Source: Pseudovirgaria hyperparasitica
Taxonomy: Eukaryota
Assembly (NCBI GenBank): GCA_010093815.1
Contig: ML996580.1
Reading direction: 5' to 3' (one strand)
Length of the DNA stretch: 64,000 nucleotides
Of this stretch, positions 8,701-36,159 are shown in pieces; the first letter of the stretch is position 1, and every line of letters begins with the position of its first letter. A model generated the notes under the pieces. It was not told the DNA's origin. It ran no database searches and saw only the letters and a list, made by a program, of their open reading frames with translations. The position numbers were made by a program, and so were the translations under genes.

Positions 8701-9351
8701 CTTTCCTGAGTTCGGTGAATAGTCCAGTACGACTATGAAGCGGGCGTGGTTGAACGAAGTGAGTGAATACGCACTATTTCATAAACCTAATCAAGATATA
8801 GAGAGCATGCAACCTCAATCGTGAACAAGGCAAGCCAACTCGAAGATGGGGTCAACACACCAGATGCGGAGAAGACACAGATAGATAGGTACCAAGGGAG
8901 CTAGACGTGGGGTAGCAGGTGCCAGTTCAGGGTCTAGTTCAACCTGCAGTTGGTGTCCGGGCTAGCGAGATGATGAAGCTGATGACCCTTATGATCGGTT
9001 GTCTTGTGCGTCTAGTTGTGCATCCCTGCCCTTTAGAGTCGCAGACGTACAATTGAAAAGAGGGGAAACTCAAGAGGTTCATCGTCCACTGCAGAAGTCT
9101 CCATATTCCATCGCGCGAAGTTTCAAGGAACTAAGGCTGGAGTAAGGCTCTAGAATGACTTATACAATTGCCTAGATAGTATGGAGAGCAGGCACTTGCC
9201 TCAGACCTAGTCTTCATGCCTTGATGCCTTGATGCCTTGCCGAGACTTTCTCCATCTGATAAGGCTGAATAAAACTAGTAGCCTCCGCCATAACTTTTCT
9301 CGCATTCTTCGCGTCGAACGGCCGCCTCGATCGTAGCATCCTGTCGCATTG

Positions 9352-11531
9352 ATGTCATTGACTGATGCAAGCTCTCGCGTGGTGCGGCGCGGTGCATCAC
9401 GATGCTCCATATTCCCGTCGCCATCGCCTGTCTCGTATGACGCGCGAAGATGCATTTCCCAGGGGTGGCTAAGGAAAGAAGTGGAGAGAAATCTGAATTG
9501 GAGTAGGACTGCTAAGGAAATCGATGCGGGCAGGCAAAAGAGTTTTCTGACCATGCTCGAGGAGCGCGGCCTTGTCAAACAGATAGCTGGGTATGCCAAA
9601 TTACAAGTTTTTGAAATATTGACCGCAGCTAACTGAGGTTTAGGAATCGGGATGCGTTGGACAAGCTCCTTACGAAGAAGCGCATAGGGGTCTACTGTGG
9701 TGTTGACGCTACGGCATCCTCTCTACATATTGGGCACATGCTTCCTGTGATGATACTGTTCTGGTCTTATGTCCACGGTTATCCGACTTTCCACCTGGTG
9801 AGTAATGTACCTGTACTCGGGGTCAATGATGCTAACAGTCGTGCAGATAGGTGGTGCCACTGCAAAGATAGGAGACCCTAGCGGCCGCTCGACAGAACGA
9901 GAGCCCATGCACAGGAGCAGCAGAAGTAAGAATATTTTGTTAATGCAAGAACAAATTAAGAGAATGTGGAAGAAAATAGAGTTTTATGCTGCTCGTCACG
10001 GCTTTGTTCATGATAAGAAGAGCATGAGCTGGCTACGCGGAATTTACAACAACTCAACCTGGCATAATAAAGTCACTGTGTCGGAAATATTGGGCCAGCT
10101 CGGGAGGGGAATAAGAATCTCGACCTTGCTGGGTCGTGACAGGTAAGCGAGCACTCGAGAAGTAACTAGACAACTACAGTCTAATACCATATTAGTGTAA
10201 AAGAACGTCTGAATAGCGGTGTCGGTATGAACGTTGCCGAATTCTTCTACCCTCTGATGCAGAGTTGGGATTGGTGGGAGATGTTCAAACAAAAGGGGGT
10301 GCAACTTCAGATTGGCGGTTCCGACCAATATGGCAATCTTCTGTCGGGCATTGAAGCTGTGAGTTACATGCAGGCAAATGTGTCGCATGATTCCGAACGA
10401 ATTAAGCAACCAGACCTGGCCGAGGGCGACTTTAGCCTGTTTGCGATTACGACTCCCCTATTGACAACCCCGTCCGGTCAGAAGTTGGGCAAAAGCGCTG
10501 GAAACGCTGTGTGGTTGGATCCGAATCTGACCACACCATACGAGTTATACCAATACTTCGTCCGCCTTCCCGACAGCGAGGTCGAGCAATACCTCAAATG
10601 GTTCACATTCATCCCAGTCAAGGACATTGGGGTCATCATGGAAGAGCATAACAAAGATGCCAGCAAGCGTCTCGCCCAAAACTTTCTCGCCCATGAATTC
10701 GTCGAACTCGTTCACGGCTGGCATATAGCTGAAGAAGCCCGGATACAGACCACTCAACTTTACCCAAACAGCGTCAACGTATATGAGTACTTCAAAGACC
10801 TCATAAACATCAAAAGTCCAAATCAAACCGCGAAACCCCCGCCGCCTCTCCCAGACTACGCCGCCCCGGTCCAGGTCCCTGATAAAGATGCGCGCAAGCA
10901 ATTCGCTCAGTACACATTGCCCGAGCTCAACAAATATGCACCCCAGATGAACGTTTTCAATAAGAACGTTGATACTGCGATCAAGCTCCCGCGCGCATTT
11001 TTCGCGCGGAAATCCTGGCCCGTCATCTTGTACACTAGCGGCCTGGCGGGTTCGCGCACTGAAGCCACAAAGCTGTTACAAAACAAAGGCGCATACGTGC
11101 ATGGCGCGCACGGCGGCAACATTGAGACTAAAGATCGCGTTGTCTGGAACCCGATCACAGCGACCAAGATCGGCGACGCGGTGCAGTACATTCGCGACAA
11201 TACGCTGATGATCAGAGCCGGGAAATGGAATCTCAAGGTTATTGAGGTTGTCGATGATGAGGTATGGGAGCAAGAGGGCATGACGTTCCCGGTGGATAAA
11301 GACGGGAAGCCAAAGGCACAATTGGCAAGACCTGGAGAGGAAGAATACGATGAAAATGTCGAGGCTATCAAGCTGCTGCAGAGTCTGCCGCGCAGTAGCT
11401 GGAAGCCGGGGATGACAGCTGGTGAAGCGCTTGAAATTGCTAAGGCACGCGATGGATCGAAGCCGACCGCTCAAAAAAGGTTCAGTGATGCGCCGCCAGA
11501 TGGACTGTCAGGGTTTAGTGGCGTTCATTGA
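9352..11531 (+). CDS. cyt-18: Mitochondrial tyrosyl-tRNA synthetase, CYT-18 type, 4 exons
   Basis: [15 protein letters not shown] (HIGH motif), [28 protein letters not shown]; Arg/Ser-rich presequence; C-terminal S4-like region ending IRAGKWN. Confidence 0.92.
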
Positions 11532-13879: not shown

Positions 13880-14111
13880 CTTGATGGCGACGTCTCATTC
13901 ATATATCTCAATGCGACAACCCAAAGGTTTTGAACAACCAAAAAAAAGTTCGGCATCGGATATACTGCGGGCGGGGAAGGAACGACCTCCGCAAGGAGTC
14001 CGTGCGTCAGTCTGCTTCCTACTAAGTAAGGTTGGGGGTTGACGACGGCGCATGTAAAGCTCAATTGTTCAGCCCGCGATGCAGCGACAGTCAGGTTAGT
14101 GACAGGAAAAT

Positions 14112-15533
14112 ATGAGTGTCCAACGGCAAAAGCTGGTGCTATTTGGAGCTGCTGCAGCTGTTCGTTTGCTCCTCTTCACGGCTTTCCCAGCGCTACCCGA
14201 CATCTTGACTGGACGCGTCGAAGTTTCCACACCGGTGTCAAGTTTCAAGCGATGTATGCCATAATTGAGCATACTCATATATCTGCTAATAGTTCCACAG
14301 TACAGGAGGGCCTCTTCCTATACAATCACAATGTGTCTCCATACGACGGCGGCGTATACCACCAAGCGCCACTACTACTTCCAATTTTCAATCTGTTACC
14401 GAATGCAACCACGTATCCATTCTTTACAAACTTGATGTACATCATAGTGGACCTCATGGGTGGTCATATGATTATGAAGCTTGCTGAGACCGGCGAGTCT
14501 ACATCTTCCCGATTATACGTTTCCCCCAGAAGTGAACTTCGATGGAGCAGCATCTCGATCGGGGCTGGGTGAGTCGCACCCATGTGTAAAACACGCCTGC
14601 TACTGCTAACTCGTGTGTATAGTTACTTGTTTAGTCCATTCACGCTCATCTCATGCATAGCACGACCAACAACCGTTTTCGCTAACCTCTTCATGCTTAC
14701 AGCCATTGCTGAGGCCGCTAGGGGCGCAAGTGCCACCTTTATACTCGCCTTGTCCTTTGCTTCGTATATTTCGCTCCATCCAATATTACTCTTCCCACCA
14801 CTTGCGATGCTCGTATATGATGTCCATTCGAAGAGGACTAAGAGATCTATAAGCCCTATTGCTTTCAGTGTCCGCTACAGTCTAGCGGTCTGTGCTACGA
14901 TAGGGGGCTTATTACTCGTCTCGTATCTGCTTACAGGGTCCTGGGAATTCCTGGTAGCGACATATGGCGTTCGTCTCCTATTGCCGGACCTTACTCCGAA
15001 TGTCGGTCTTTGGTGGTACTTCTTCATAGAAATGTTCGATTCCTTCCGCGGATTCTTCCTCGGGGTTTTCTGGTTGCACATGGCATCCTATGTGGGCGGT
15101 CTAAGTATACGTATTCGCAGGCAGCCTCTCTTCGTTGCTGTGACGATGACTGGTATCTTTGCAGTCTTTCAACCGTATCCAAGTATTGCCGACAGTGCCC
15201 TATACCTTGCTCTGGTTCCTCTGTATCGTCACGTGTTTCCTCGTAGGTCCAATCTCCCCGAGTCCGAATCGTAGAAATGCTAAACTTCTCACAGTCATGC
15301 GGTACACATTCCTATCATCAGCTGCGATCATATATACTTCCTTCCTCGGGCCAGCTTTCTATCATCTATGGATCTATGCGGGCTCTGGAAACGCAAACTT
15401 TTTCTATGCAATCACTTTGGTATGGAGTCTTGGCTTGTCAGTCGTTGTCGTTGACTCCATCTATGCTGTATTGCGAGACGAGTGGGAGCTGGAGAGACCA
15501 GAGATGAAAGGTCAAGAAGTCCGTATGATATAA
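14112..15533 (+). CDS. GAB1: GPI transamidase subunit Gab1/PIG-U, 4 exons
   Basis: RVEVSTPVSSFKR|QEGLFLY, SPYDGGVYHQAPLLL, DLTPNVGLWWYFFIEMFDSFR, WIYAGSGNANFFYAITL. Confidence 0.95.
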
Positions 15534-15919
15534 AAGTGAATCAAAAAGAAGTAAACATCTGTCAAGTTCCACATCCTGTGGTAAGCAAAAGAAACATTTG
15601 TTTCATACTCGTTGTGGATCCATGCTCGCAGTTACACAGTGCTGTGTAGCACCCGGAGCATGTTCACTTGTGTGTGGATCCCTTCTGAATGGTTCCCAAT
15701 TCACTTGTGAGGCCTTATTTAGCTTACCCAACCAAACCTTAAAGCGCTTATACCCGACAATTTCGACCTGACTTCTTCCACATACATCTCGTATTGGAAA
15801 TTGCATAAGTCACAGAATCCACGGACTAGTAAGTCCAAATACTGATCCAATAATCATTTGGTCAAGAAGAAAGCAACACTAACAACCTACTACCAAAGTC
15901 TCACTTCGAAGACTTGATC

Positions 15920-16370
15920 ATGGCTCCAAAAGTCGTCGACACCACTACAAGTGATACTGCCGTTACCTTTACTGAGAAGGAAATGTTTATGCTGGCCTCC
16001 GCATGGCAGTGCATGTCGGAGCAGCCGAAGGTACGCGGAATTGTCCGAGGCGAGTTGATATCTTGAATACTTCTGACCCGTGTTCAAGATCGATATGGAC
16101 AAGCTCGCGAAGATTTGCGGATATACCGCCGGATCCTGTTCGGTCACCTTTGGCAAGCTTAAGCGTAAGATCAAAGCTTTAGGAGATTCAAACAGCGATA
16201 TCACCGCAGCTCCTCCATCTACACCAAAGTCAGGCGGTCGAAAGCGCAAGCCTAAGGAGAACGAGGGCGAGGAGTCGCCAACGAAGAAAGTTCGCAACGT
16301 GAAGGCTCCTGCAAAGGTTGACCCTGAGGAGGAGAGCCCGGAGCCCGAAGTCAAGGACGAAAGTCACTAG
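15920..16370 (+). CDS. Array paralog 1: small basic HTH/Myb-like protein, 130 aa; exons 15920-16030, 16089-16370
   Basis: MAPK..FTEKEMFMLASAWQCMSEQPK | IDMDKLAKICGYTAGSCSVTFGKLKRKIK, then GGRKRK tail; phase-0 GTACGC..CTGAC..AAG intron. Confidence 0.85.
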
Positions 16371-16896
16371 ATCAGCATGTTCGCATGATCACACCACGCT
16401 CCGAAGGTCTTGAGAATGAAGTGGGATATGGATTACTTTGCGGCTTATATGTGGCATGAATCGTGACTCGCATTGCGAGCTCGCTCATGTCAATCCGAAG
16501 AAGTATTGGTGTTATTCAAATGTGGACTTAAATAGAATGATAGGTGTTATTGAGGCGATGACCCCGCAAGCTCACTTCTTAGTCATGAACTGCCTTTTTG
16601 AACCATTGTCTTTTATTGCCTTGAGCCATTCCGTGGGAAACGGTGAACTTTGCCTGTATTAGGGACAATTCGCGGCATAATCACCTTGCCGGCTGAGGTC
16701 ATGTCACTGAGAGCTGTAATCACTTTTCCGGCAGAATGGTCTGATATCTCTGCCCTCGGCTCGGCTTTCTTATAAATTTGACGAACTCTCGCATTCCCCT
16801 TACATTCCACAATCCTTACAACAGCTCGCCCTTCCCTTCGTCTACCAACATCTCCCACTTCAAATTTCTCCGTAAGGTTAGAAGCAATCACTCAAC

Positions 16897-17435
16897 ATGC
16901 CGCCAAAGGCCTCCAAACCTGAAGCTACCAAATCATCCACCTTTTCGGAGAAGGAAATGACTATGCTGGCATTCTCGTGGCAATGCTTTGACGAGAAGCC
17001 TAAGGTATGCTGTCGCTGAGAATTCGTCCAATGACTATGGCTGATCATGGCTAGGTCAACAATGTGAAGCTCGCAAAACTCATGGGTTACACAGAGGGCA
17101 CTGCGAAGACAACATGGAATGCTCTGCAGCGTAAGCTAAAGGCTTTGGCTGAGACTGACGAAACTGAGGGCAATGATGAGGGCAATATGGGCATCACTAA
17201 TAACGACAACGATGGTGATGATGATGGTGCCCCAGTCCCTGTGACCCCAAAGACAACACCTCGCAAGCGTAAGACCAAAGGTGAGGACGTCAAGGCGAGC
17301 CCAACCAAAAAGTCTCGTGCGAAGCCGAAGACCCCAGTCAAAGCCCAAAGCTCGGATGACGACAAAGACGCAGAGGCTGTGGAGGCTGTGGAGGCTGTGG
17401 AGGCTGATGGCGAGGAGAACAATATCAATGACTGA
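16897..17435 (+). CDS. Array paralog 2, 162 aa; exons 16897-17004, 17055-17435
   Basis: MPPK..FSEKEMTMLAFSWQCFDEKPK | VNNVKLAKLMGYTEGTAKTTWNALQRKLK; GTATGC..CTGAT..TAG intron. Confidence 0.85.
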
Positions 17436-17960
17436 TTCTGACACGCACATGCTTTCTTTGGGCTAGTCGATACTGTTTTTGGTGTACATGGTGGTCTGAA
17501 AAGTTACGGTGTTCCACGAAAGCTTCACTCTTATCCAGTTCGTTAGAGGTCAGAGGGATCGGTGAATTGTTTTAGATTCTAGGACTTCACCTACATACAG
17601 TTTCTAAACGCAGATATGCCGTCAAGGAATTCGATTGTGTCAATGTGTCAAATGAAGTAGCACAAATAACATATTTACGTCTTTACGACACTATGTATCA
17701 AGGATCCATGTATGCTCGTTCACTGGTGTGATAAACTCACTAGCTCATTTGAATGCACTACTTACACGAGTAAACCATAGATTAGCGCTGCCTCCACACT
17801 TCGCACTTTACGTGTCAACTAAAATTTCCCTGCTTACCTCTCACACAGCAAATATATCACCCTTTTCAACTCTTCCTAAGGTAGCGCTTGTCTCCTTACT
17901 TTCTTACCAATTGTACTAATTAGGCCTGTAATCTAGTCATATCTGATCATACATTAAGAC

Positions 17961-18454
17961 ATGGCTCCAAAGGTTGATCCTGAAGCTATTCCCACGGTGC
18001 TTACTGAGAATCAGATGAAGATCCTTGTCTTCATGTGGGCTCAAGTTGACCCTGACCCCAACGCTTCTATCGTGAGTCTCAAGTCATATTCATTGACTTC
18101 TATTATGGAAAGCTAAGATTAGGATAGGTGGATAGTCATAAGATTGCAAATGACCATGGACTCGCTTATAACTCAGTTCGCAAGTGGGTAGCAACCATTC
18201 GCAAGACGATTCGTGCCAGCGTCGAAGGTGGCGCCGGTGACGATGCCTCTCGCAAGGCTAAAAGTGATCCTAAAGCCAAGGTCATAGGAGGTAGCAAGAA
18301 GCGCAAAGATGCTGAAATCAAACATGACGAAGCATCGGAGGAAGACAAAGAGGGTCCGCCTACCAAGAAAGCAAAGAGCAAAGTTCGCGGAAGGAAGAAA
18401 ACCCCTGCTACTGACTCGCCGGAACTTGGTGGAGAAGCAAGTGGAGAAGCTTAG
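17961..18454 (+). CDS. Array paralog 3 (most diverged), 145 aa; exons 17961-18071, 18128-18454
   Basis: MAPK..LTENQMKILVFMWAQVDPDPNASI | VDSHKIANDHGLAYNSVRKWVATIRKTIR; GTGAGT..GCTAA..TAG intron. Confidence 0.8.
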
Positions 18455-18949
18455 ATGGACTGAACATTGCCCAAGCTCTGATACGTATTGACCTTCTCAT
18501 AGCGGCGCTATTGAGTTCAAGTGTCTCCTAGGCGGAGCTTTTCGTGATCGACACGCACCGCTTCACATAAACAAGAAGACCCGTGGCATCAATACCTTGG
18601 ATACAAGCCTAGATCTGGTACTGACAGTCAAAATACAATCAATGGTCTTTTATAAGCTTCTTTATCGTAGTCTGTGCACGAATTTTTGTTGACTGCCGTT
18701 CACGCAACTGTTTCCATGGTGACACAGTTTCACTGTTGAGACAAACCCTGACCCGGTTTCCGGCAACAACAACAACGACAATTGATCGTTGCCCACACCT
18801 GTTTCGATCTTTCTTTCTTCCCTGCGCCTAAATATATCTAGGATTCCAAATCAGTTCCTGGTCCGTACATCACTGTCAAGTCTTTCATTCACTGAACTAT
18901 ACAGACCCGAGGCAAAACACGAACTTCAACCGTCAAGAAGGACAGCAAT

Positions 18950-19473
18950 ATGGCACCCAAGTCTGATTCGAAGACCGGCTCCGCTACGAGCTTGACTGAG
19001 AAGGAGATGAAGCTACTGGCCCTGATGTGGCTCTGTACTGATGTCCCAGATCCAAAAGTACGTATCAAAACCTCACCTTCTCCAAAGATCACAAGCAATT
19101 ACCTTTCACAATCCCTCTGAAGCACTTGTCTAACATATCACAGATCGATTACGACAAACTTGCTGACCTGAGCGGCTACACCAGATCTTCAGTGATGACC
19201 TACGTCCCAGTCATCAAGAAAAAGATCAAGAAACTTCAAGGCCCAGATGCAAGTACAGCTACTGCCCCTGACTCCAAGAAGGCCTCAGCAAGCGGCCGAA
19301 AGCGTAAGGCAGCTGATGTGGAGGACGAGGATGTCGACAATGACACACCCGCTCCCCCGAAAAAGACAAGGGTCATCAAAAGCGCCAAAAAAACTGCGCC
19401 AGTGGTCAGAGCCGAGCACAGTGAAGAGGAGGAAGCTATTGAGACGCATACAGAAGGAGAGATCGAAGCTTAA
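18950..19473 (+). CDS. Array paralog 4, 145 aa; exons 18950-19057, 19144-19473
   Basis: MAPK..LTEKEMKLLALMWLCTDVPDPK | IDYDKLADLSGYTRSSVMTYVPVIKKKIK; GTACGT..CTAAC..CAG intron. Confidence 0.85.
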
Positions 19474-20075
19474 ACTCATTGTGTGCAGGTATGCGTGGAG
19501 GCAGCACTATTCATGATTAGGTTCAGGGGTGAATGGAAATCTCTTTGCCTCCTTTCTGGCAAGCATACATCCATTTCATCGTATCTTCATAGTAGATGTT
19601 GTGAACATCTGGGGGCTGGAGATGATCAACGCATTGGGTTTGGGGACTCTACGGGGCAGTCATGGTATCTAGCTGCTCTAAGTATCGATGCATTCGCATA
19701 GTAGTAGATGAATGCAACACTGCCGGAACTGGCACAAAATCCTGCTACTGCTCGCCTTGAGTCACTTATGGCTGACAGCCTGCGAGTTCACCTGTTGTGA
19801 TTGGTGCGCCCTTTTCTCAAATAAATATTTAAGCCGCCTCTTTCTCCACATTTTTTTCTGATTGCAACAACATTGTGAAAGCTGCCTCACCTCACCCACA
19901 ACAACCTTTCAACTCTGATAACGTGAGTACATTATTCTAAACCTAACCTATTTCTGACTTTCTGTTTTTGATCGAAAGATCTTGTGTTCATCGCTCACAT
20001 TTCATGTCAATAGTTCACATCCCTGGTCCACCCAGCAAAAGAACCAAATCCTCCAAACACTCAAACCACGTCAAT

Positions 20076-20638
20076 ATGCCTCCAAAGGTCGACCTCTCTG
20101 GTATGCCCGAGCACTCTGCTCGCATGCTCGCCCTCGCTTGGCTTTGCATGGATACTGAACCCAAGGTGAATCTTCTCCCACTGATCTCCCGTAAGCACGC
20201 GCTTACAGAAATATACTGATACTTTCTTTACTACATCATTGCGCAGACCTAGAGCTAACTCTCCAACTCTAGATCGATACTGCTAAGCTCTCTCAGCTTT
20301 CCGGTTATACCCTCAAGTCTACCGCTGAGATGTTGCGTGTCGCAAAGAAAAACATCCGCGCTATGGATACCGCAGATGGCAAACCCGTGACCGAGCCCAC
20401 CAGCAAGGCTGCCAAGCCTGTAAATAAGGTGAAGGCGACTGCTGGTAATCACGATAAAGATGAAGACAACGATCTGAATGAGTCTGTACCCACTGTCAAG
20501 GCTATTAAGGGTAGGAAGCGCAAGGCTTATGTCGACGAAGACGAGGATGTTCCAGCCAAGAGAACCAGAGGTAAGGGAAAGAGGATTCCCATGAACGAGG
20601 AGAGTGCTGATAATGGAGATGATGAGGATGAAGTTTGA
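20076..20638 (+). CDS. Array paralog 5, 151 aa; exons 20076-20165, 20273-20638
   Basis: MPPK..MPEHSARMLALAWLCMDTEPK | IDTAKLSQLSGYTLKSTAEMLRVAKKNIR; GTGAAT..GCTAAC..TAG intron. Confidence 0.85.
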
Positions 20639-21174
20639 GATGGATTGGGATGGAACGAGATGGAATGTAAAGCACTAGAGGCTATGGTGAGATTTCGTTG
20701 CACTGATGGCTAGCACCAACCGGGCGAATGGACCCGATTTGACTGCGCTGCCAGATATCTTGTGCATGTAGCATGCGTTACCCACATTAGGAATAGAAAA
20801 GACGTTCCTATACTATCTACTATGGAGCCAAGTGTTTTACTGTCATTGGGAGTCACTTTATAACTATCCGACCTATGAAGTGACTCAGTTCACACGCCGG
20901 AGTAGATGCAACATCCATGGTTTTCATGATTCTACACAGCTTAGGCAGGAATCTTTCTCAATGAAAATGTATCGTAGAGCTCTAAATATCTCTCAAACAA
21001 TTCCACCAAGAGCACACCGTTCGGTGCTCCCCCTCTCAGTAGCACATGAATCATGAAATACATGCACCGATCCCCTCGATACCACACAACGAACACATCC
21101 ATACCCCTTCACCAATCCCCAGAGCCCACGTCGAAGGTAAACCAGCTTGTACCCTTTCAAAACCTCTAATACAG

Positions 21175-21666
21175 TTACCCAATCACGCCTGGCCTGAATC
21201 CAGCCATCCTGTATCTATCATTCAACTTCTGTGCATCGACCAGCATCTGACGACACCTCTCATATCTTGCCTCAAGCGCATCATATCTCTCCTGCATCTC
21301 GTCCATTGAATCGCTACAACCAACAAAGTCCCCGTCATCATCATCCTTACGATCCTCATCTTCTTCTTTCAGGTCGTGGATCGTCCACCTTTTCTGTTTC
21401 TGGCACCACGGACAGATCTCCTTGGTACCGGCACCACTTCCGTGTTCGGATTTGTACGCATATAGGACCAAGGTAATGGAGTACACATGGGTAGCGATTG
21501 TGTATATACCGCGGAATATAAGCACGTGTGACGCACCGGGGGATGATAGAGGGCCCCAGACAAGGAGCGCTGTTGATATGAAGGAGAGTATGTGCGGAAG
21601 GATCAGGCCATAAAGTAGATATTTGTATACACAAGATCGTGCAGTTTTGGGTCGAGGAGGCGGCAT
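21175..21666 (-). CDS. Hypothetical small membrane protein (~163 aa): two hydrophobic segments, CPWC, acidic patch, C-terminal coiled-coil
   Basis: First ATG of the 21175-21711 ORF is at 21666 (MPPPRPK); coherent TM-TM-coiled-coil layout (MDEMQERYDALEARYERCRQML); no family recognised. Confidence 0.55.
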   Translation of the reverse strand: MPPPRPKTARSCVYKYLLYGLILPHILSFISTALLVWGPLSSPGASHVLIFRGIYTIATHVYSITLVLYAYKSEHGSGAGTKEICPWCQKQKRWTIHDLKEEDEDRKDDDDGDFVGCSDSMDEMQERYDALEARYERCRQMLVDAQKLNDRYRMAGFRPGVIG

Positions 21667-24600
21667 TGAGGAGTGGGTTTCAAGATTGAATGCTTGGGTG
21701 TGAGGATACACACAATTTAGAGTACGTTCAGGTGTGAGGGCAAAAGAATGGAAAATCTCGGAAGATGGTGGCGAAGGAGATGACTAGAGGACGTGTATAT
21801 GGACGCGTAGAGAGATAGCATGAAGAGAGAAGTCAATTACGGAACTGTGGGTGTTCTAATTTGTTTACAATGCCAAATCACAACACTCTGCTGTAACGAT
21901 GCATACACCCAGAATAATGACCATAAATGTTGCATTTTGAAGATCCCCAAACTTCTACATACATTCAAATCGAATTCAAGCACTGCATCAAGTTCAGCAA
22001 TGCTGGACTCTCTGACTAAAAAGAGACATACCCAAGTACTGTCTCATGCTGCGTAGACTGTGATGCATTATGGAAGGAATTGTCAAGATCGAAGCCTATG
22101 TAAGCAAAATTTCTCACAGCGCAGATTGTGATTTCGTGACAAAGACTCACGAGTTAGATTAGTGCTAAAGGGGCATTGAGGCCTGGAATTTGGCAACATA
22201 TGGCGGCCTCAAATCGAACCAACAATCGCTCACGTTGGGGCACCTCCTTCTCATATGTAGACTGCGACCCCATCAAACTGCACTAAGATACCGGGTTCTC
22301 TAGAGCCATGATCTTTGGTGGTATGGTCTCCTTTATAACTGGCAGTTCCTTTCAGCTTTTCGATTATGATTTACCTTACGACAGTTTTCACAGGGGTGAT
22401 CTGGTGGTTCTGTGGTATAGTTCACCAGGAGCCCATATGTTATGGCACTAAGACGCAGTGATATTATCTGGAGGGTTCAAGCCGTATCTACAAATTTCGT
22501 TCTCTGACTTGGTCCCGCGCTTCGTCCTTAGAGCGATGTCTTATGGCTTTGGTTTTCAAAGTATGTTCATATGTATGGCTGGGTACCTTAATAGTGTACT
22601 ACAATAATGTTTCTTCATTTCAGATTCGGTTGATGTTCTCGAAAATGCGTGGAACAGAGAGCGACGAAGATATGGTGTGAAAATACGTGTCTCCACCCTG
22701 AAATTGACGGAAATTTGTACTTGAGACTTACAAGTTGCTTCGTCGACCGCCACTCCGTCCCTACGTTGTACCGGAAAAGCCAATGATTCTTCACCTCCCA
22801 CCTGCAGATTGACGTTTACCTACTGACTGCACAAAGTTGGATGTGACAAATCCTGCTATGGTTGCAGCATTGCTCACTATCCAGGCAAGAGACAGAATCG
22901 TCAGCGCTCCTCTTGACTCATATCAATATACGACTTTGTAGAGCCTTCTCATAGTATTTGATGAGTAATAATGTCGTATCTAACCTGATGAGATGGAGGC
23001 ACCTTCAAACATAGTATTGACGTTATGTCCTTCAGTACCCCTCTCAGATCTTGTCAGTCGCTACGCATCAGATAGGTAGCATATATGTGGAAAGTTGAGT
23101 AAACTTGAGTCTGAGATCATCCAAATAGAGCATGGACCAAGAAGATTCGATATATGATGACGATTCCTGAAGCGTACGTTAGAGCTAACGACTTAGTGTT
23201 CTTAGCCACCATATTCATATGGTGCACTTCGGTATGTCATGTCTAGCGCAACCAGGACCAACAGGTCTAGGAAGAGATAGATTCGAATGTGGGTCTGCGC
23301 AACACAGGCCACTCCGATTCCTGTCAGACCCATCAGTGTTTCCCGTCCTAGACGTTCCCAACAGCATGAGGCATATCGGACTTTTCAGGCAGGCGTACGT
23401 CCCGGACGGCAATTTTTTTCGTGGCTATGCATCGGACTACACCAAAAAAACTAGAAGTCGGTGTTCAGTCGAACATGAATTTGATTAACTCGGCATTCTG
23501 AGTGGATAGAGTGTTTTTGATAGATATCCATACTCCATGCCTAGTAGATATAAGCATATTTCAGAGTACTTACAGGCCTTTTCCAGGTTGCCAACCACCA
23601 TATCGCTGTTTGTTGCGGAACATGCCGTACGAGAGATGCACAATGTACAAACACATCCGTCTAACTCCATGGTGATCGCGAGAATTGAGAAACTTATCTT
23701 GAGGCGTTCCAGCACTCCAGGAGACTGTGGCGTCGTGTTAAGAGATCGGAAGAAACCTTTCCGAACAGCTTCGAAGGATCCACATCGGATACGAATAACA
23801 CGAAGGGGCGTCCTGCTTTTGCGATTTGGAACAATGCCAGAAGATAACAGTAGTAACAGCAATAAAGAGGAGTTACGTGAGAGTAATGGAAAGAAACATA
23901 TGAGATCGCTATTCATGCACGCTATGCTACAGCAAACAAAAGCTTGGATATATTCTAACAAAAGAACATGTATGAACAATACTTACTTACTCCTTGCCGC
24001 TCACTTCTCCTGATATAATGTATGGACGTGGCGAACCATGATCGGCGAAGCTTTTAACAGACCCTGCCTGTAAGTAACAAGTATTCCAGGTCATCAATAT
24101 CGTTATCGTTTCCAGCTGTGGCGTGAGTATAGATCCGGATGGTGCTCCACATGCTCTCAGGATCGGGAAGACATTATGAGCACAAGTTCGCGGCTATGTA
24201 CGCATTTGGTTCGGATCTGACGGACGAAAACTTCTTGATCTTCAACATGCAAACGCCACCCCTGCTGCACGTTCTAAATGGTCTTTTGTGTTTTGTCTAT
24301 CGTCAAGTAGTTGAAGTGGGTGGGAAAGGTTCGAACGGCCGCGGCCCGCGACGGCTTGGAAGCCAGATCATAGGAAATTATTTGGGCAGAATCCGAATCG
24401 TGACAGAGTTCTGAACGGGTGTCAGCAGTTCCGACGAATGAGAAGAGTTCCTGCGCGTCCAAGTACGGAAATTTTCCTGCCCGATCTAGAGCGTTGAATC
24501 CCTTTGAGCGAGCTTTTTCGGCTTCGCGTAGATGTGGTGCAAGGTACAGGCGCGGAGAGACGCTACTGCAGCTTGGCCAGCACTCTGAGAGTCGTCGATG

Positions 24601-32634: not shown

Positions 32635-35600
32635 TTATTCGTATCTCGGGTCATCATCTCCAGTTGCCGCTGGTGTTGGTGCGCTCCATTGTCCCGGCGT
32701 CTCAGCAAATCCACCTGGAGTCTCTGCATAGCCACCAGGCGTGGGAGCAGCATACGCCCCAGGCGTTGGTGCTCCCGCCGGTGTGGCGTAGTTGCCATAA
32801 GAGCCAGCACCGTAGCGAGGCGTGGCATGGTCTCCAGGCGTCGGTGCAGCAAAGCCTGGTGTTGGCGCATCATATGCCGCGGGCGTTGGGGCGCTCTGGT
32901 AGGTGTTGGACGGCGGCGAGGCCGCATTGCGAGACGCAGATGAGCCCCATGTTGATGATGAAGCGTCAGTGGCATAAGGGTTAGGGGTCTTGGCAGAGGC
33001 AGACCACGTTGACTGTTGAATTTTAGCGGAAAACCACGGTTGGGATCGTTGAGCACTTACGTTTCCATAGGCAGTTCTACTGCCATCATTACCACCATAC
33101 GCAGTACGGCTACCATCATTTCCTCCGTATGCGGTGCGACTGCCATCGTTTCCGCCATACGCGGTCCGGCCTCCGTCATTTCCGCCTTGCCATGCGGGCG
33201 TCTTTGCAGAACTCCATGCTGGAGTCTTAGCACCACCGGACTTCCATGCAGGCGTTGCTCCGCCCATGCGCGAGCCTCCCCATGATGGCGTCGGTCCAGC
33301 AGCGTTGGGTCCAAAGCGTCCTGGTGTACCACCGCCGATCTTGGGACGAGTATTCCCAAAGCGGTTGAAGTCGACTGATTGACCGGTGATTGGATCTTTG
33401 ATTGCAAGAATGTCTTTTTTCATGGTGATCGTCTTGCTCTTCGTGTGTAGCTCCACTCTTGCTTCCAAGTCAGTCGTATCTTTGACAATGCCCAGTAATC
33501 CTTTGTGTGGCCCTTTTTTAACGTGCACTGTCTTCCCAATGAGCTTGTCTCTACCGAAGGTTTTGGGAGGTGCCATGGCACCACCAGCATTCGGTGCACC
33601 ATTGCGGGGTTGCAATGCTGGATTCATCTTGGTGAGATCAGGACCAGCGTTCTGAACGCGTCCCCCCTTTGCAGCCACAGTCGTGACATTAGTGCTACGC
33701 GTCACGAAAATACCGGCATTCTCGGTCTGTTGTCTGTTCTGACAGAATAGAAAGTTCCTGTGGATGTGCATGATGCGACCTTGCTTGGACTCCATACCTG
33801 ATTCTTTGACAGTATCATCGGGTCGAAGTTCGGACCCATCACGATCAGTAGCTACTGCTCTAGCACGCTTCTCGATCTTACTTGAGATCTGAGACGGAAG
33901 CATCGTTCGGACAGAGCCATTCTGGTCGAGAACCTTGAGAGACTCACGATCGACGCGAACGATGCACGCGACGGTCGAGACGTCCAGCTGAACAAGATCG
34001 TAAAGGTCGTAGACCCCGCTGCTAGGTAAGTTGGTTGCAGCACTTGCCAGTCGAAGGTCCCTCGATAATACCGGCATCTCTTGGTTGTTGGAATCTGCTA
34101 GGAATGTCACTTGATCGCCCTTAACCTTGACAACCATTCCAACTTCATCCTGATATTTGCCAGCCAAGACCTTGACATAATCACCCTCAGCAAACTTCTT
34201 TCTGAGAGCCTTGATGGGTGCCTCTATAGTCTGGTCTACCAACATCCCTTCGGTGACTTTCAAGGTGACAATTTCTCCACGGACAGAAATAGCCCGTCCA
34301 ACCACGCCTGCTTGTTCTCCTTGACTAAGCTCGACGAGATCGCCGGGGAGGAAAGCATCTGCCGTTACGCTGTTTTTCAGTGTATTTGCTAGAGCTGTCA
34401 AATCAAGTTCTTCGGTTCCATCAGCCGCGCCAGCGGCAAACTTGCTGACTTCATCAAGCTTCGGATTGACATTCTCTGTTTCCAGGTATGTTATCCGATA
34501 GTCTTTGATCAAGAAGCCGTTCTCATACGAATCGCCCTTGTACGTGTAGTCTCGCCTTCCCAACCCACCGTTCACAGAAAGGAATTTGGCATTTCTTCCT
34601 TTCCGTGCCTCGGTCTCGTTGAATAGTCGCTGTGGAGGTCGAGGCATGTTCGCAGGCTTTCCGAATTTGCGTTTCTTGTCAGTAGCCGGTGCGTTGACAT
34701 CTTCGTTAAGACCATAATCCAAGCGGGGAATGAGCTTGACGGTGACATCTACACCATTCGCTTCCACAGCTACGACCTGTGCAAGATCTCCTGCATACAT
34801 TGCAGGCCTCTTCATGCGTACGTAGGCTCCTGGGTTGAGTGTCTTCGACTTAGTGACTCGAAGGAGGTCCGGCATCTCATTGACGGGTATCAAGATCATC
34901 TTTGTGCGTGGGTAGCAGAACGCGATGCCCTCGGTGGCCGTGAAGACTGCATTTTGGGTGCGTGCTTCAATGTATATGTAGCCAGCCATTGTTCCTGCGC
35001 CTCGCTCGAAAGCAGAGAATATTTGGAGGGGCTCTCGCGTCAGTGCTTGCTCCTGTTGTCTTTTCGTGATCGAGAATATGACTTCCTTTTCTTTGCCCGG
35101 CTTGCACCGTACTCCCCAGATGCTCGGATCATCTACTGAAGGGAGCAGCAGTCTTTGTGGTACCACCGCTGAGTCTATTGCAGCGGCTCGACTGCGGCCA
35201 TATCGTTCGCGAAGTGCCTGAAGTTGCGATGTCAACGATTTGTACAAGCCAGTCTGGTGAAAATACTTACTGCGGCCTGTTTCTCAGCATCCATACTCGC
35301 CTCCATCTCACGTTGTCTATCCAATTCGCGATGGCGACGATCGTCTCTATTATCGTCGCGCACATCTAGGAGATCATCGGGGTGCACTTCTTCTGGCATG
35401 TCTCCCTCCTCGTCTTCCATTTCTTCCTCGTCTTCCTCGTCAACTTCGGCTTCGACATCTATGAACTGTAGTCTTGCGTCGCGCTTTCTTCGTTTTCGTG
35501 TATGCCCCTGGGAAGGTTAGCCATAGATTCGACATATATGTAGTGTGGTCAGCACAAACCCGAACTTCATCTTCTTCATCGTCCTCCTCTTCATCCTCAT

Positions 35601-35874
35601 CGTCATCGTTCCCTAAGTCTTCGCCTTCACCCTCCTCATCTTCGTCTCCGCCAGCTTCATCTTCGTTGTCCTCATCGCCACTTTGGTGCCTACTCCGCGA
35701 TCTTTTCGTAGGACGCGACCCTTGTTCATCTTCATCTTCAGCTGGAGGTCGAGATCGTCGGTCTTTGGTGGCAGGAGGTTGCACATCATCTTCATCTATA
35801 TGAGCCGAAGGATTGAAGTCTTCTTCATCATCCGAGTCATTAAACTGCTGGTCCAAGAAATTTGAGGTCGACAT
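32635..35874 (-). CDS. SPT5: Transcription elongation factor Spt5 (acidic N-terminus, NGN, KOW domains, C-terminal repeats)
   Basis: [60 protein letters not shown] and APTPG repeats. Confidence 0.97.
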
Positions 35875-36159
35875 AGTAATGTGAGTGGAGGTCGTTCGTG
35901 GACGTTGAGGTAATACGCGTAAGGTGACGAACAGATCTTGAAGGGAATGAACAAATAGCAATCGTTGTATCGCCTCGAGAGATTTTGAGGACCTTCAGTA
36001 TCGCTTAGGCTGAGATGGACCTTAGTTACCTATCGCGAGGCAACTATATACGAACACGGTTCACGGTTTCTGTAGAACCGCATCCAAATGTGGCTAGACC
36101 TGAATAAGACCTAGGGTTGTTACGGCACAACTACGGTACCGTGGCCACGCTAGTGGAAT

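Follow-up and report, generated by a model that had tools for sequence, protein, structure and literature searches.

The question raised by this locus is whether five small genes on the same strand, at positions 15920-20638 of a 64,000-nucleotide stretch of Pseudovirgaria hyperparasitica DNA (contig ML996580.1, assembly GCA_010093815.1; the whole stretch is called the window here), form a genuine tandem array, what kind of protein they encode, and whether they amount to an undescribed system, as the original prediction had proposed. P. hyperparasitica is placed in the Dothideomycetes, order Acrospermales, and is mentioned in one report as a mycoparasite of rust sori (PMC3317363). We found that the array is real but is not a new kind of system, since its genes were already annotated and belong to a family of 293 representatives, some of which are labeled "Myb-like domain-containing protein". 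Three points are new: five copies stand intact in tandem, each with contigs derived from transcripts; every one of them has the XPK start; and the family escapes the Pfam thresholds. On balance, we favor, with some reserve, an old tandem expansion of a gene adjacent to GAB1, whose products would be small nuclear helix-turn-helix (HTH) proteins that bind DNA or chromatin, perhaps alpha-N-methylated, and whose copies would be functionally diverged duplicates.

The sequence was read at 15500-21200 and spliced by coordinates. Five two-exon genes, named g1 to g5, were obtained on the plus strand, encoding proteins of 130-162 aa at a spacing of about 1 kb (Table 1). The start-to-start distances from g1 to g5 were 977, 1064, 989, and 1126 bp, and the layout and coordinates given in the original prediction proved exact. 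The coding introns were 58, 50, 56, 86, and 107 nt long in g1-g5, respectively; all five ran from GT to AG in phase 0, and the length of exon 1 was divisible by three in each gene. As predicted, the introns shared one site, directly 5' of the (I/V)(D/N)xxK(L/I)....G(Y/L) motif with which exon 2 begins. The M(A/P)PK start was likewise found in every spliced model, and alignment agreed with the description of a common exon-1 motif that is looser in g3 and g5. The spliced products of g1-g5 were identical, letter for letter, to the deposited proteins P0001, P0003, P0005, P0004, and P0002, which, where named, are called "hypothetical protein EJ05DRAFT_..." of P. hyperparasitica. All five frames are intact despite heavy divergence. 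Searches of all six frames with tblastn and a family profile detected exactly five family loci in the 64 kb window and no relic copies of the array genes. Protein-level similarity within the array was far above chance in tblastn (for example, 1.7e-10 for g1 against the g2 locus).

Transcript evidence came from contigs of two runs, X1 and X2, of unrecorded kind and from one sample of one study. Because these contigs lacked seven different canonical introns, they must derive from spliced RNA. The coding introns of g1, g2, g4, and g5 were skipped at the predicted borders in contigs of X1 and X2, with joints at 19057->19144 in g4 and at 20163->20271 (cut +2) in g5. For g3, cover broke off close to where exon 1 ends, no contig of either run lay on the region 18215-18757, and the g3 coding intron is thus unconfirmed by these contigs. 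Transcript-derived contigs were thus present on all five genes, and the proposed check of the spliced junctions was borne out for the coding introns of four of them, g3 being the exception. Introns were also found in the 5' untranslated regions (UTRs) of g1, g4, and g5 and inferred in that of g3 (Table 1), and contigs spanning 16641-17002 contained none for g2. The contig depths were unsuitable for ranking the five genes. In the model that we propose, each array gene would be its own transcription unit.

One contig in each run (2232 and 2262 nt) carried the GAB1/PIG-U transcript from upstream of 15500, through the g1 5'UTR intron, and into g1 (window positions 15500-16562). This may reflect UTR overlap or read-through, possibly an overlap and not a single transcript. 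At position 19880, a low-depth X1 contig ended in 26 loose letters, which presumably represent sequencing adapter; this loose end is most likely an assembly artefact and not biology.

To place the five proteins in a family, a profile of the five (alignment A1, consisting of P0001 and exon fragments) was searched against 1.84 billion representatives. It matched 293 proteins at E<=0.001, of which 57 passed E<=1e-10 and five passed E<=1e-30; these five were the array genes themselves, and the next match scored 82 bits (E 4.7e-18). Most matches were 110-220 aa long. Two word-indexed profile searches returned 88 and 70 matches. The family is spread across Pezizomycotina; the named sources were Dothideomycetes (Bipolaris, Alternaria, Cercospora, Hortaea, Elsinoe, and others), Sordariomycetes (Colletotrichum, Pyricularia, Verticillium, and Ophiostoma), and Eurotiomycetes (Exophiala), and apart from the few Myb-like labels the proteins were almost all named "hypothetical" or "uncharacterized". 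An alignment of 104 members (A2) gave the consensus ...RE...LA.AWQCF...PKID..KLA.L.GY.N..SA......IKKKL, followed by TP, KRK, P.KK, and an acidic end. The array matched the family profile with its motifs in the family order, namely, WxC in helix 1, PK-ID..KLA..GY, a basic helix 3, RKRK, and PTKK. Exserohilum turcicum ACJQWK_11114 (P0006), Pyrenophora seminiperda P0095, and Hortaea werneckii P0163 and P0166 share the architecture and motifs of the array, in the order F(T/S)xxE..LA.AWQC...PKID..KLA...GY...SA......KKKL, with TP..RKRK, (S)PTKK, and an acidic terminus after it. In tblastn, P0006 found g1 (6e-18), g2 (3.5e-13), g5 (3.8e-4), and g4 (0.014), and g3 was tied to the family only through g4 (5e-6) and g1. 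A role as secreted effectors was considered and rejected, as no hydrophobic N-terminus was seen by eye in g1-g5 and the family spans fungi of many lifestyles.

The named hits in relatives were one or two dispersed genes, in contrast to the five in a row of Pseudovirgaria. Paralogue pairs with distant locus tags were seen in Meristemomyces (LTR08_000343 and LTR08_005692) and Recurvomyces (LTR86_002125 and LTR86_006485). These locus tags of named hits indicate, indirectly, that the paralogues of other Dothideomycetes are dispersed and not tandem, and by the same indirect measure a five-gene array appears mildly unusual. Two family cores per polypeptide were observed in three of 285 family proteins (P0113, 340 aa; P0089, 137 aa; P0134, 228 aa), and in P0015 (784 aa) a single full copy was accompanied by a further stretch resembling the tail and by a DUF4097 domain. 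These sequences show that duplication of the unit, or merging of tandem genes, occurs outside Pseudovirgaria as well.

We then considered whether the label "Myb-like", which the original prediction had shared, fits the array. Single-exon Pfam scans yielded nothing useful, because the intron splits the domain, and a word-indexed search with exon 2 of g1 recovered just the g1 protein, one of six candidates. Full-length g1 matched PF22980 (Myb_DNA-bind_8) with 17.7 bits (E 0.0023), below the gathering cut-off of 27 bits, which none of g1-g5 reached; residues 33-66 of g1 aligned to positions 15-49 of the 50 in the model, with helices 2 and 3 in register. No PF22980 match was obtained for g2-g5 at E<=1. 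The model was matched at E<=0.01 by 15 of the 104 family members (best 7.6e-5), and the highest score among the extra family proteins was 24 bits, for P0096. In a protein-language-model atlas, g1 and g5 adjoined Ascomycota clusters in which PF22980 occurs in 11-60% of members; these are leads only. Pfam scans of the five proteins, run at E<=1 or E<=10, showed no canonical Myb or SANT family. In the canonical domain, each of the three helices contributes one aromatic residue at a regular spacing. That spacing was not present here: helix 1 has the W of AWQC, helix 2 has, at the matching place, no aromatic residue other than the Y of GY, and the residue in helix 3 varies (F, W, W, Y, and L). By these comparisons, the array family is a distant sister group of PF22980 and, by the curated test, not a member of it. 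Myb_DNA-bind_8 is the only Pfam lead for the HTH/Myb-like reading, the match itself is sub-threshold, and the "Myb-like" label derives solely from that match. A literature search for the name "Myb_DNA-bind_8" and the accession "PF22980" found no paper, so that even membership would bring no tested function with it.

The predicted structures gave a clearer picture of the core. The AlphaFold2 model of g1, built with the 104-row alignment, contained helices at residues 19-30, 40-47, and 51-75, with core scores of 87-96 in the predicted local distance difference test (pLDDT), and left the other 55 residues unstructured. The model of g3, the most diverged copy, contained helices at 16-27, 40-47, and 51-72 (core pLDDT 87-95) and a disordered tail. 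The tails were basic and then acidic in composition. Both predicted cores fit a three-helix Myb-like domain of about 50 residues such as PF22980. Foldseek searches of the PDB with the g1 and g3 models returned no match at E<=0.001, the best E-values being 0.9 and 0.24, and almost every weak structural neighbor at the top of the lists was a DNA-binding HTH (homeodomain, sigma region 4, LuxR-type response-regulator domain, or ArsR). The best geometric fit was to EsrB (7vim_A), with a template modeling (TM) score of 0.76 by target, a root-mean-square deviation of 1.4 over 61 columns, a probability of 0.98, and an E-value of 0.81. Homeodomains, sigma-70 region 4, and LuxR-type HTH domains, which are three-helix HTH units of similar size, headed both the Foldseek and the VIA lists. 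A sequence-profile search of the PDB found nothing in the core other than Lhx9 (E 0.85) and otherwise matched the low-complexity tail (best NOB1, E 0.033). The prediction that a core of about 55 aa forms a three-helix HTH is supported by confident three-helix models of g1 and g3 and by their HTH neighbors, with the qualification that the structural matches are non-significant. We regard an HTH-class three-helix fold as likely from these models. Since no fold or family match was significant, no function is transferable by homology.

The N-terminus is another feature common to the array. The proteins start with MAPK in g1, g3, and g4 and with MPPK in g2 and g5. M(A/P)PK was found in five of five array proteins, compared with 14 of 270 other members (pattern M[APSG]PK; 10 proteins having been dropped for lack of an initial M or a length above 260 aa), and the next ten residues are fully diverged within the array. 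According to a review, eukaryotic alpha-N-terminal methyltransferases (yeast Ntm1/Tae1 and human NTMT1) prefer the sequence XPK, where X is A, S, or P, and methylation strengthens DNA binding by the N-terminal domain of CENP-B (PMC10293735). All of g1-g5 carry such an N-terminal X-P-K once Met is removed. As in the array, the XPK start of CENP-B lies just before an HTH DNA-binding-type domain. No sequence or significant fold relation between CENP-B and the array was found, so the analogy is one of function only, and methylation is hypothetical here.

The tails also carry recognizable motifs. Read by eye, a pair of basic clusters, (G/P/S)(R/K)KRK and P(T/P/A)K(K/R), separated by 12 to about 25 residues, resembles a bipartite nuclear localization signal. 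A [ST]P.[KR][KR] site was present in 233 of the 270 relatives, and within the array it was present only in g1 and g2, as SPTKK. Its counterparts are PPTKK in g3, APPKK in g4, and VPAKR in g5, in which the phospho-acceptor is gone. We take S/T-P-x-K-K to resemble a cyclin-dependent kinase site or an SPKK-type minor-groove motif, and, from the sequences, a phospho-regulated step was possibly lost in the diverged copies g3-g5. The regions upstream of the five genes had no 7-, 8-, or 9-mer in common, the same as in shuffled sequences, and a TATA-like match to our own pattern was found upstream of g2 only.

These features can be combined into a working model of the protein. An M-(A/P)-P-K start would be followed by an HTH of about 55 aa, distantly related to Myb_DNA-bind_8 and with a long basic third helix of the LKRKIKAL type, then by a disordered linker, the two basic clusters, and, in four of the five copies, an acidic end. 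The HTH would touch DNA through helix 3, the basic clusters would carry the protein to the nucleus and add non-specific DNA affinity, and the N-terminus may be alpha-N-methylated as in CENP-B, which would strengthen DNA binding. Alternatively, the three-helix domain may be a protein-interaction module, comparable to SANT or HOP, and the proteins may be small nuclear adaptors or chaperone-like factors that bind histones through their mixed tails. The HOP structures 1uhs and 2hi3 were among the top Foldseek rows for g3 (E 0.33-0.35), the last 30 residues contain 8-12 acidic residues in four of five copies, the isoelectric point of the core is low in g2 (6.2) and g3 (6.9), and, as noted above, the fold and family matches are too weak to transfer a DNA-binding function. 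However, all five copies have a basic helix 3, which reads IKKKL in the family consensus, the weak structural neighbors are mostly DNA-bound HTH domains, and Pfam gives its nearest model a DNA-binding description. We consider an interaction module unlikely, though worth keeping in view, and prefer DNA or chromatin binding. In the suggestion that the array is a chromatin or transcription-regulatory module, DNA binding, a chromatin role, and a nuclear location are properties that we infer.

The age of the array was assessed from the coding sequences. Pairs of copies were identical at 12/55 to 30/55 of the amino acids in the 55-residue core. Synonymous differences in the core were saturated (proportion, pS, 0.63-0.87), and nonsynonymous differences (proportion, pN, 0.31-0.58) were below pS in 10 of 10 pairs. 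Of the 10 core pairs, five had an undefined Jukes-Cantor dS and the other five a value above 1.4, and owing to this synonymous saturation dN/dS is not estimable. The lower pN in all pairs agrees with long-term constraint, as a plain comparison and not a formal test. At the DNA level, a single match was left, in which exon 1 of g1 and that of g2 agreed at 76% over 72 nt. The array showed no signature of repeat-induced point mutation (RIP): its indices (TpA/ApT 0.72; (CpA+TpG)/(ApC+GpT) 1.30) were equal to those of the rest of the window, as was its GC content. The duplications of the array are old, and the copies are too diverged for RIP or unequal recombination, which may be the reason why the array is stable.

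In the proposed history, one gene beside GAB1/PIG-U expanded in tandem, g2-g5 would be fast-diverged duplicates of g1, and the five paralogues would have become sub- or neofunctionalized, with different targets or partners. Within the array, g1 is the conservative copy, having the best family-profile scores and a short branch. Its identity to P. seminiperda P0095 over the core was 57%. The source of P0095 (212 aa) calls this protein "gpi transamidase component pig-u", and by its length it has no obvious PIG-U part; the name hints at derivation from a neighboring or merged gene and at possible GAB1 synteny in Pleosporales.

A different history is that the copies predate the lineage, in that the array, or at least its g3-g5 type, comes from early Dothideomycetes and each copy has orthologues elsewhere. 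A tree of 215 rows (nine of 224 proteins, outside 100-260 aa, were dropped) was largely unresolved and placed g3-g5 in a weak group with two Meristemomyces proteins, P0102 and P0130 (SH-like approximate likelihood ratio test (SH-aLRT) 90). Full synonymous saturation, the two paralogues of Meristemomyces and Recurvomyces, and the closer similarity of g1 to Pleosporales proteins than to its array neighbors (57% against 22-55% in the core) point the same way. Against this, in a set of 79 rows (the best 75 hits and six neighbors, less two proteins over 260 aa), the tree with g1-g5 as one clade had a log-likelihood 36.7 above that of the free quick search, with a p-value of 0.886 in the approximately unbiased test (p-AU), the M(A/P)PK start is confined to a small minority of relatives, and the paralogues of the other species lie far apart. 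An origin before the lineage therefore seems rather improbable to us. A single origin of g1-g5 is not rejected and is the simpler reading; long-branch attraction could help the single-clade result.

A further question was whether some copies, chiefly g3, are decaying duplicates without function. This copy has the longest branch (1.62) and the lowest profile scores (42.3 and 14.2 bits), its coding intron lacks contig confirmation, and it is without the C of WxC and the S/T of SPTKK. On the other hand, its frame of 145 codons is intact despite saturated divergence, an X1 contig shows splicing of its inferred 5'UTR intron, its three-helix core is still predicted with pLDDT values as high as those given above, and it keeps the M-A-P-K start and both basic clusters. 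Decay is accordingly a very remote prospect in our judgment.

Two large family proteins, P0043 (501 aa) and P0096 (721 aa), combined an N-terminal Rrn9 domain (PF10680; E 1.5e-17 and 3.1e-16) with a C-terminal family domain. Each has a Met 5-9 residues ahead of F-T-(D/E)-R-E, a spacing within the range of the stand-alone proteins, and they may be merged neighboring genes and not true fusions. Fusion and merger alike point to a recurrent link of the family with RRN9 in some species. Rrn9 is a subunit of the RNA polymerase I upstream activating factor (UAF). In the window, tblastn with P0043 and P0096 did not find RRN9. In a bolder version of the expansion, the array would encode diversified HTH chromatin proteins with alpha-N-methylation. 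Each of the five would be an Ntm1/NTMT substrate, its permanently charged N-terminus would cooperate with the HTH and with the basic tail (SPKK-like in g1 and g2), and the proteins would be small linker-like or locus-specific chromatin factors. This version would add a possible tie between the family and UAF, because two representatives carry the domain fused or merged with Rrn9. We hold it to be a long shot and retain the more general form of the model.

The significance of the array lies in annotation and in its use as a tractable test case. The family extends over the largest filamentous fungal group, to which many crop pathogens belong, and no member with a tested function was found. With five natural variants of a single small HTH scaffold inside 5 kb, the array is a convenient entry to the binding properties of the family and to the question of XPK methylation. 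It also illustrates that old tandem arrays can persist in a filamentous ascomycete once they have diverged beyond repeat-directed mutation and recombination.

Table 1. Coordinates of the array genes, their 5'UTR introns, and the adjoining GAB1 gene in the window.
Feature	Position (strand)	Structure	Protein length	Deposited protein	Evidence
g1	15920..16370 (+)	exon 1 15920-16030, intron 16031-16088, exon 2 16089-16370	130 aa	P0001	
g2	16897..17435 (+)	exon 1 16897-17004, intron 17005-17054, exon 2 17055-17435	162 aa	P0003	
g3	17961..18454 (+)	exon 1 17961-18071, intron 18072-18127, exon 2 18128-18454	145 aa	P0005	
g4	18950..19473 (+)	exon 1 18950-19057, intron 19058-19143, exon 2 19144-19473	145 aa	P0004	
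g5	20076..20638 (+)	exon 1 20076-20165, intron 20166-20272, exon 2 20273-20638	151 aa	P0002	
g1 5'UTR intron	15829..15898 (+)	70 nt, GT..AG			joint 15828->15899, one contig each of X1 and X2
g3 5'UTR intron, inferred	17881..17936 (+)	56 nt, GT..AG			X1 contig loose end before 17935 matches 17862-17878; boundary by eye
g4 5'UTR intron	18861..18904 (+)	44 nt, GT..AG			joint 18859->18904, cut +1
g5 5'UTR intron	19923..20013 (+)	91 nt, GT..AG			joint 19922->20014
Glycosylphosphatidylinositol (GPI) transamidase subunit PIG-U (GAB1)	14030..15533 (+)	several exons			PF06728, E 1.3e-67 and 1.2e-19 on two open reading frame (ORF) pieces

The surroundings of the array were surveyed by a Pfam scan of ORFs. 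GAB1/PIG-U adjoins g1 upstream on the same strand, preceded by Pescadillo (minus strand) and tyrosyl-tRNA synthetase. Downstream of the array, an ORF that matched no Pfam family is followed by a Ctr copper transporter and a WD40 protein. Among these annotated neighbors, the scan showed no sign of a mobile element or metabolic cluster. Three ORFs of 165-202 aa, at 21175-21783 (-), 23485-24013, and 9207-9722 (-), had no Pfam match at E<=0.001; the first of them lies directly 3' of the array on the opposite strand. Elsewhere in the window, an ORF at 35443-35994 (-) matched only the tail of the family profile (positions 74-140, E 2.4e-4), through low-complexity basic and acidic sequence and with the core unmatched, and it probably encodes an unrelated charged protein.

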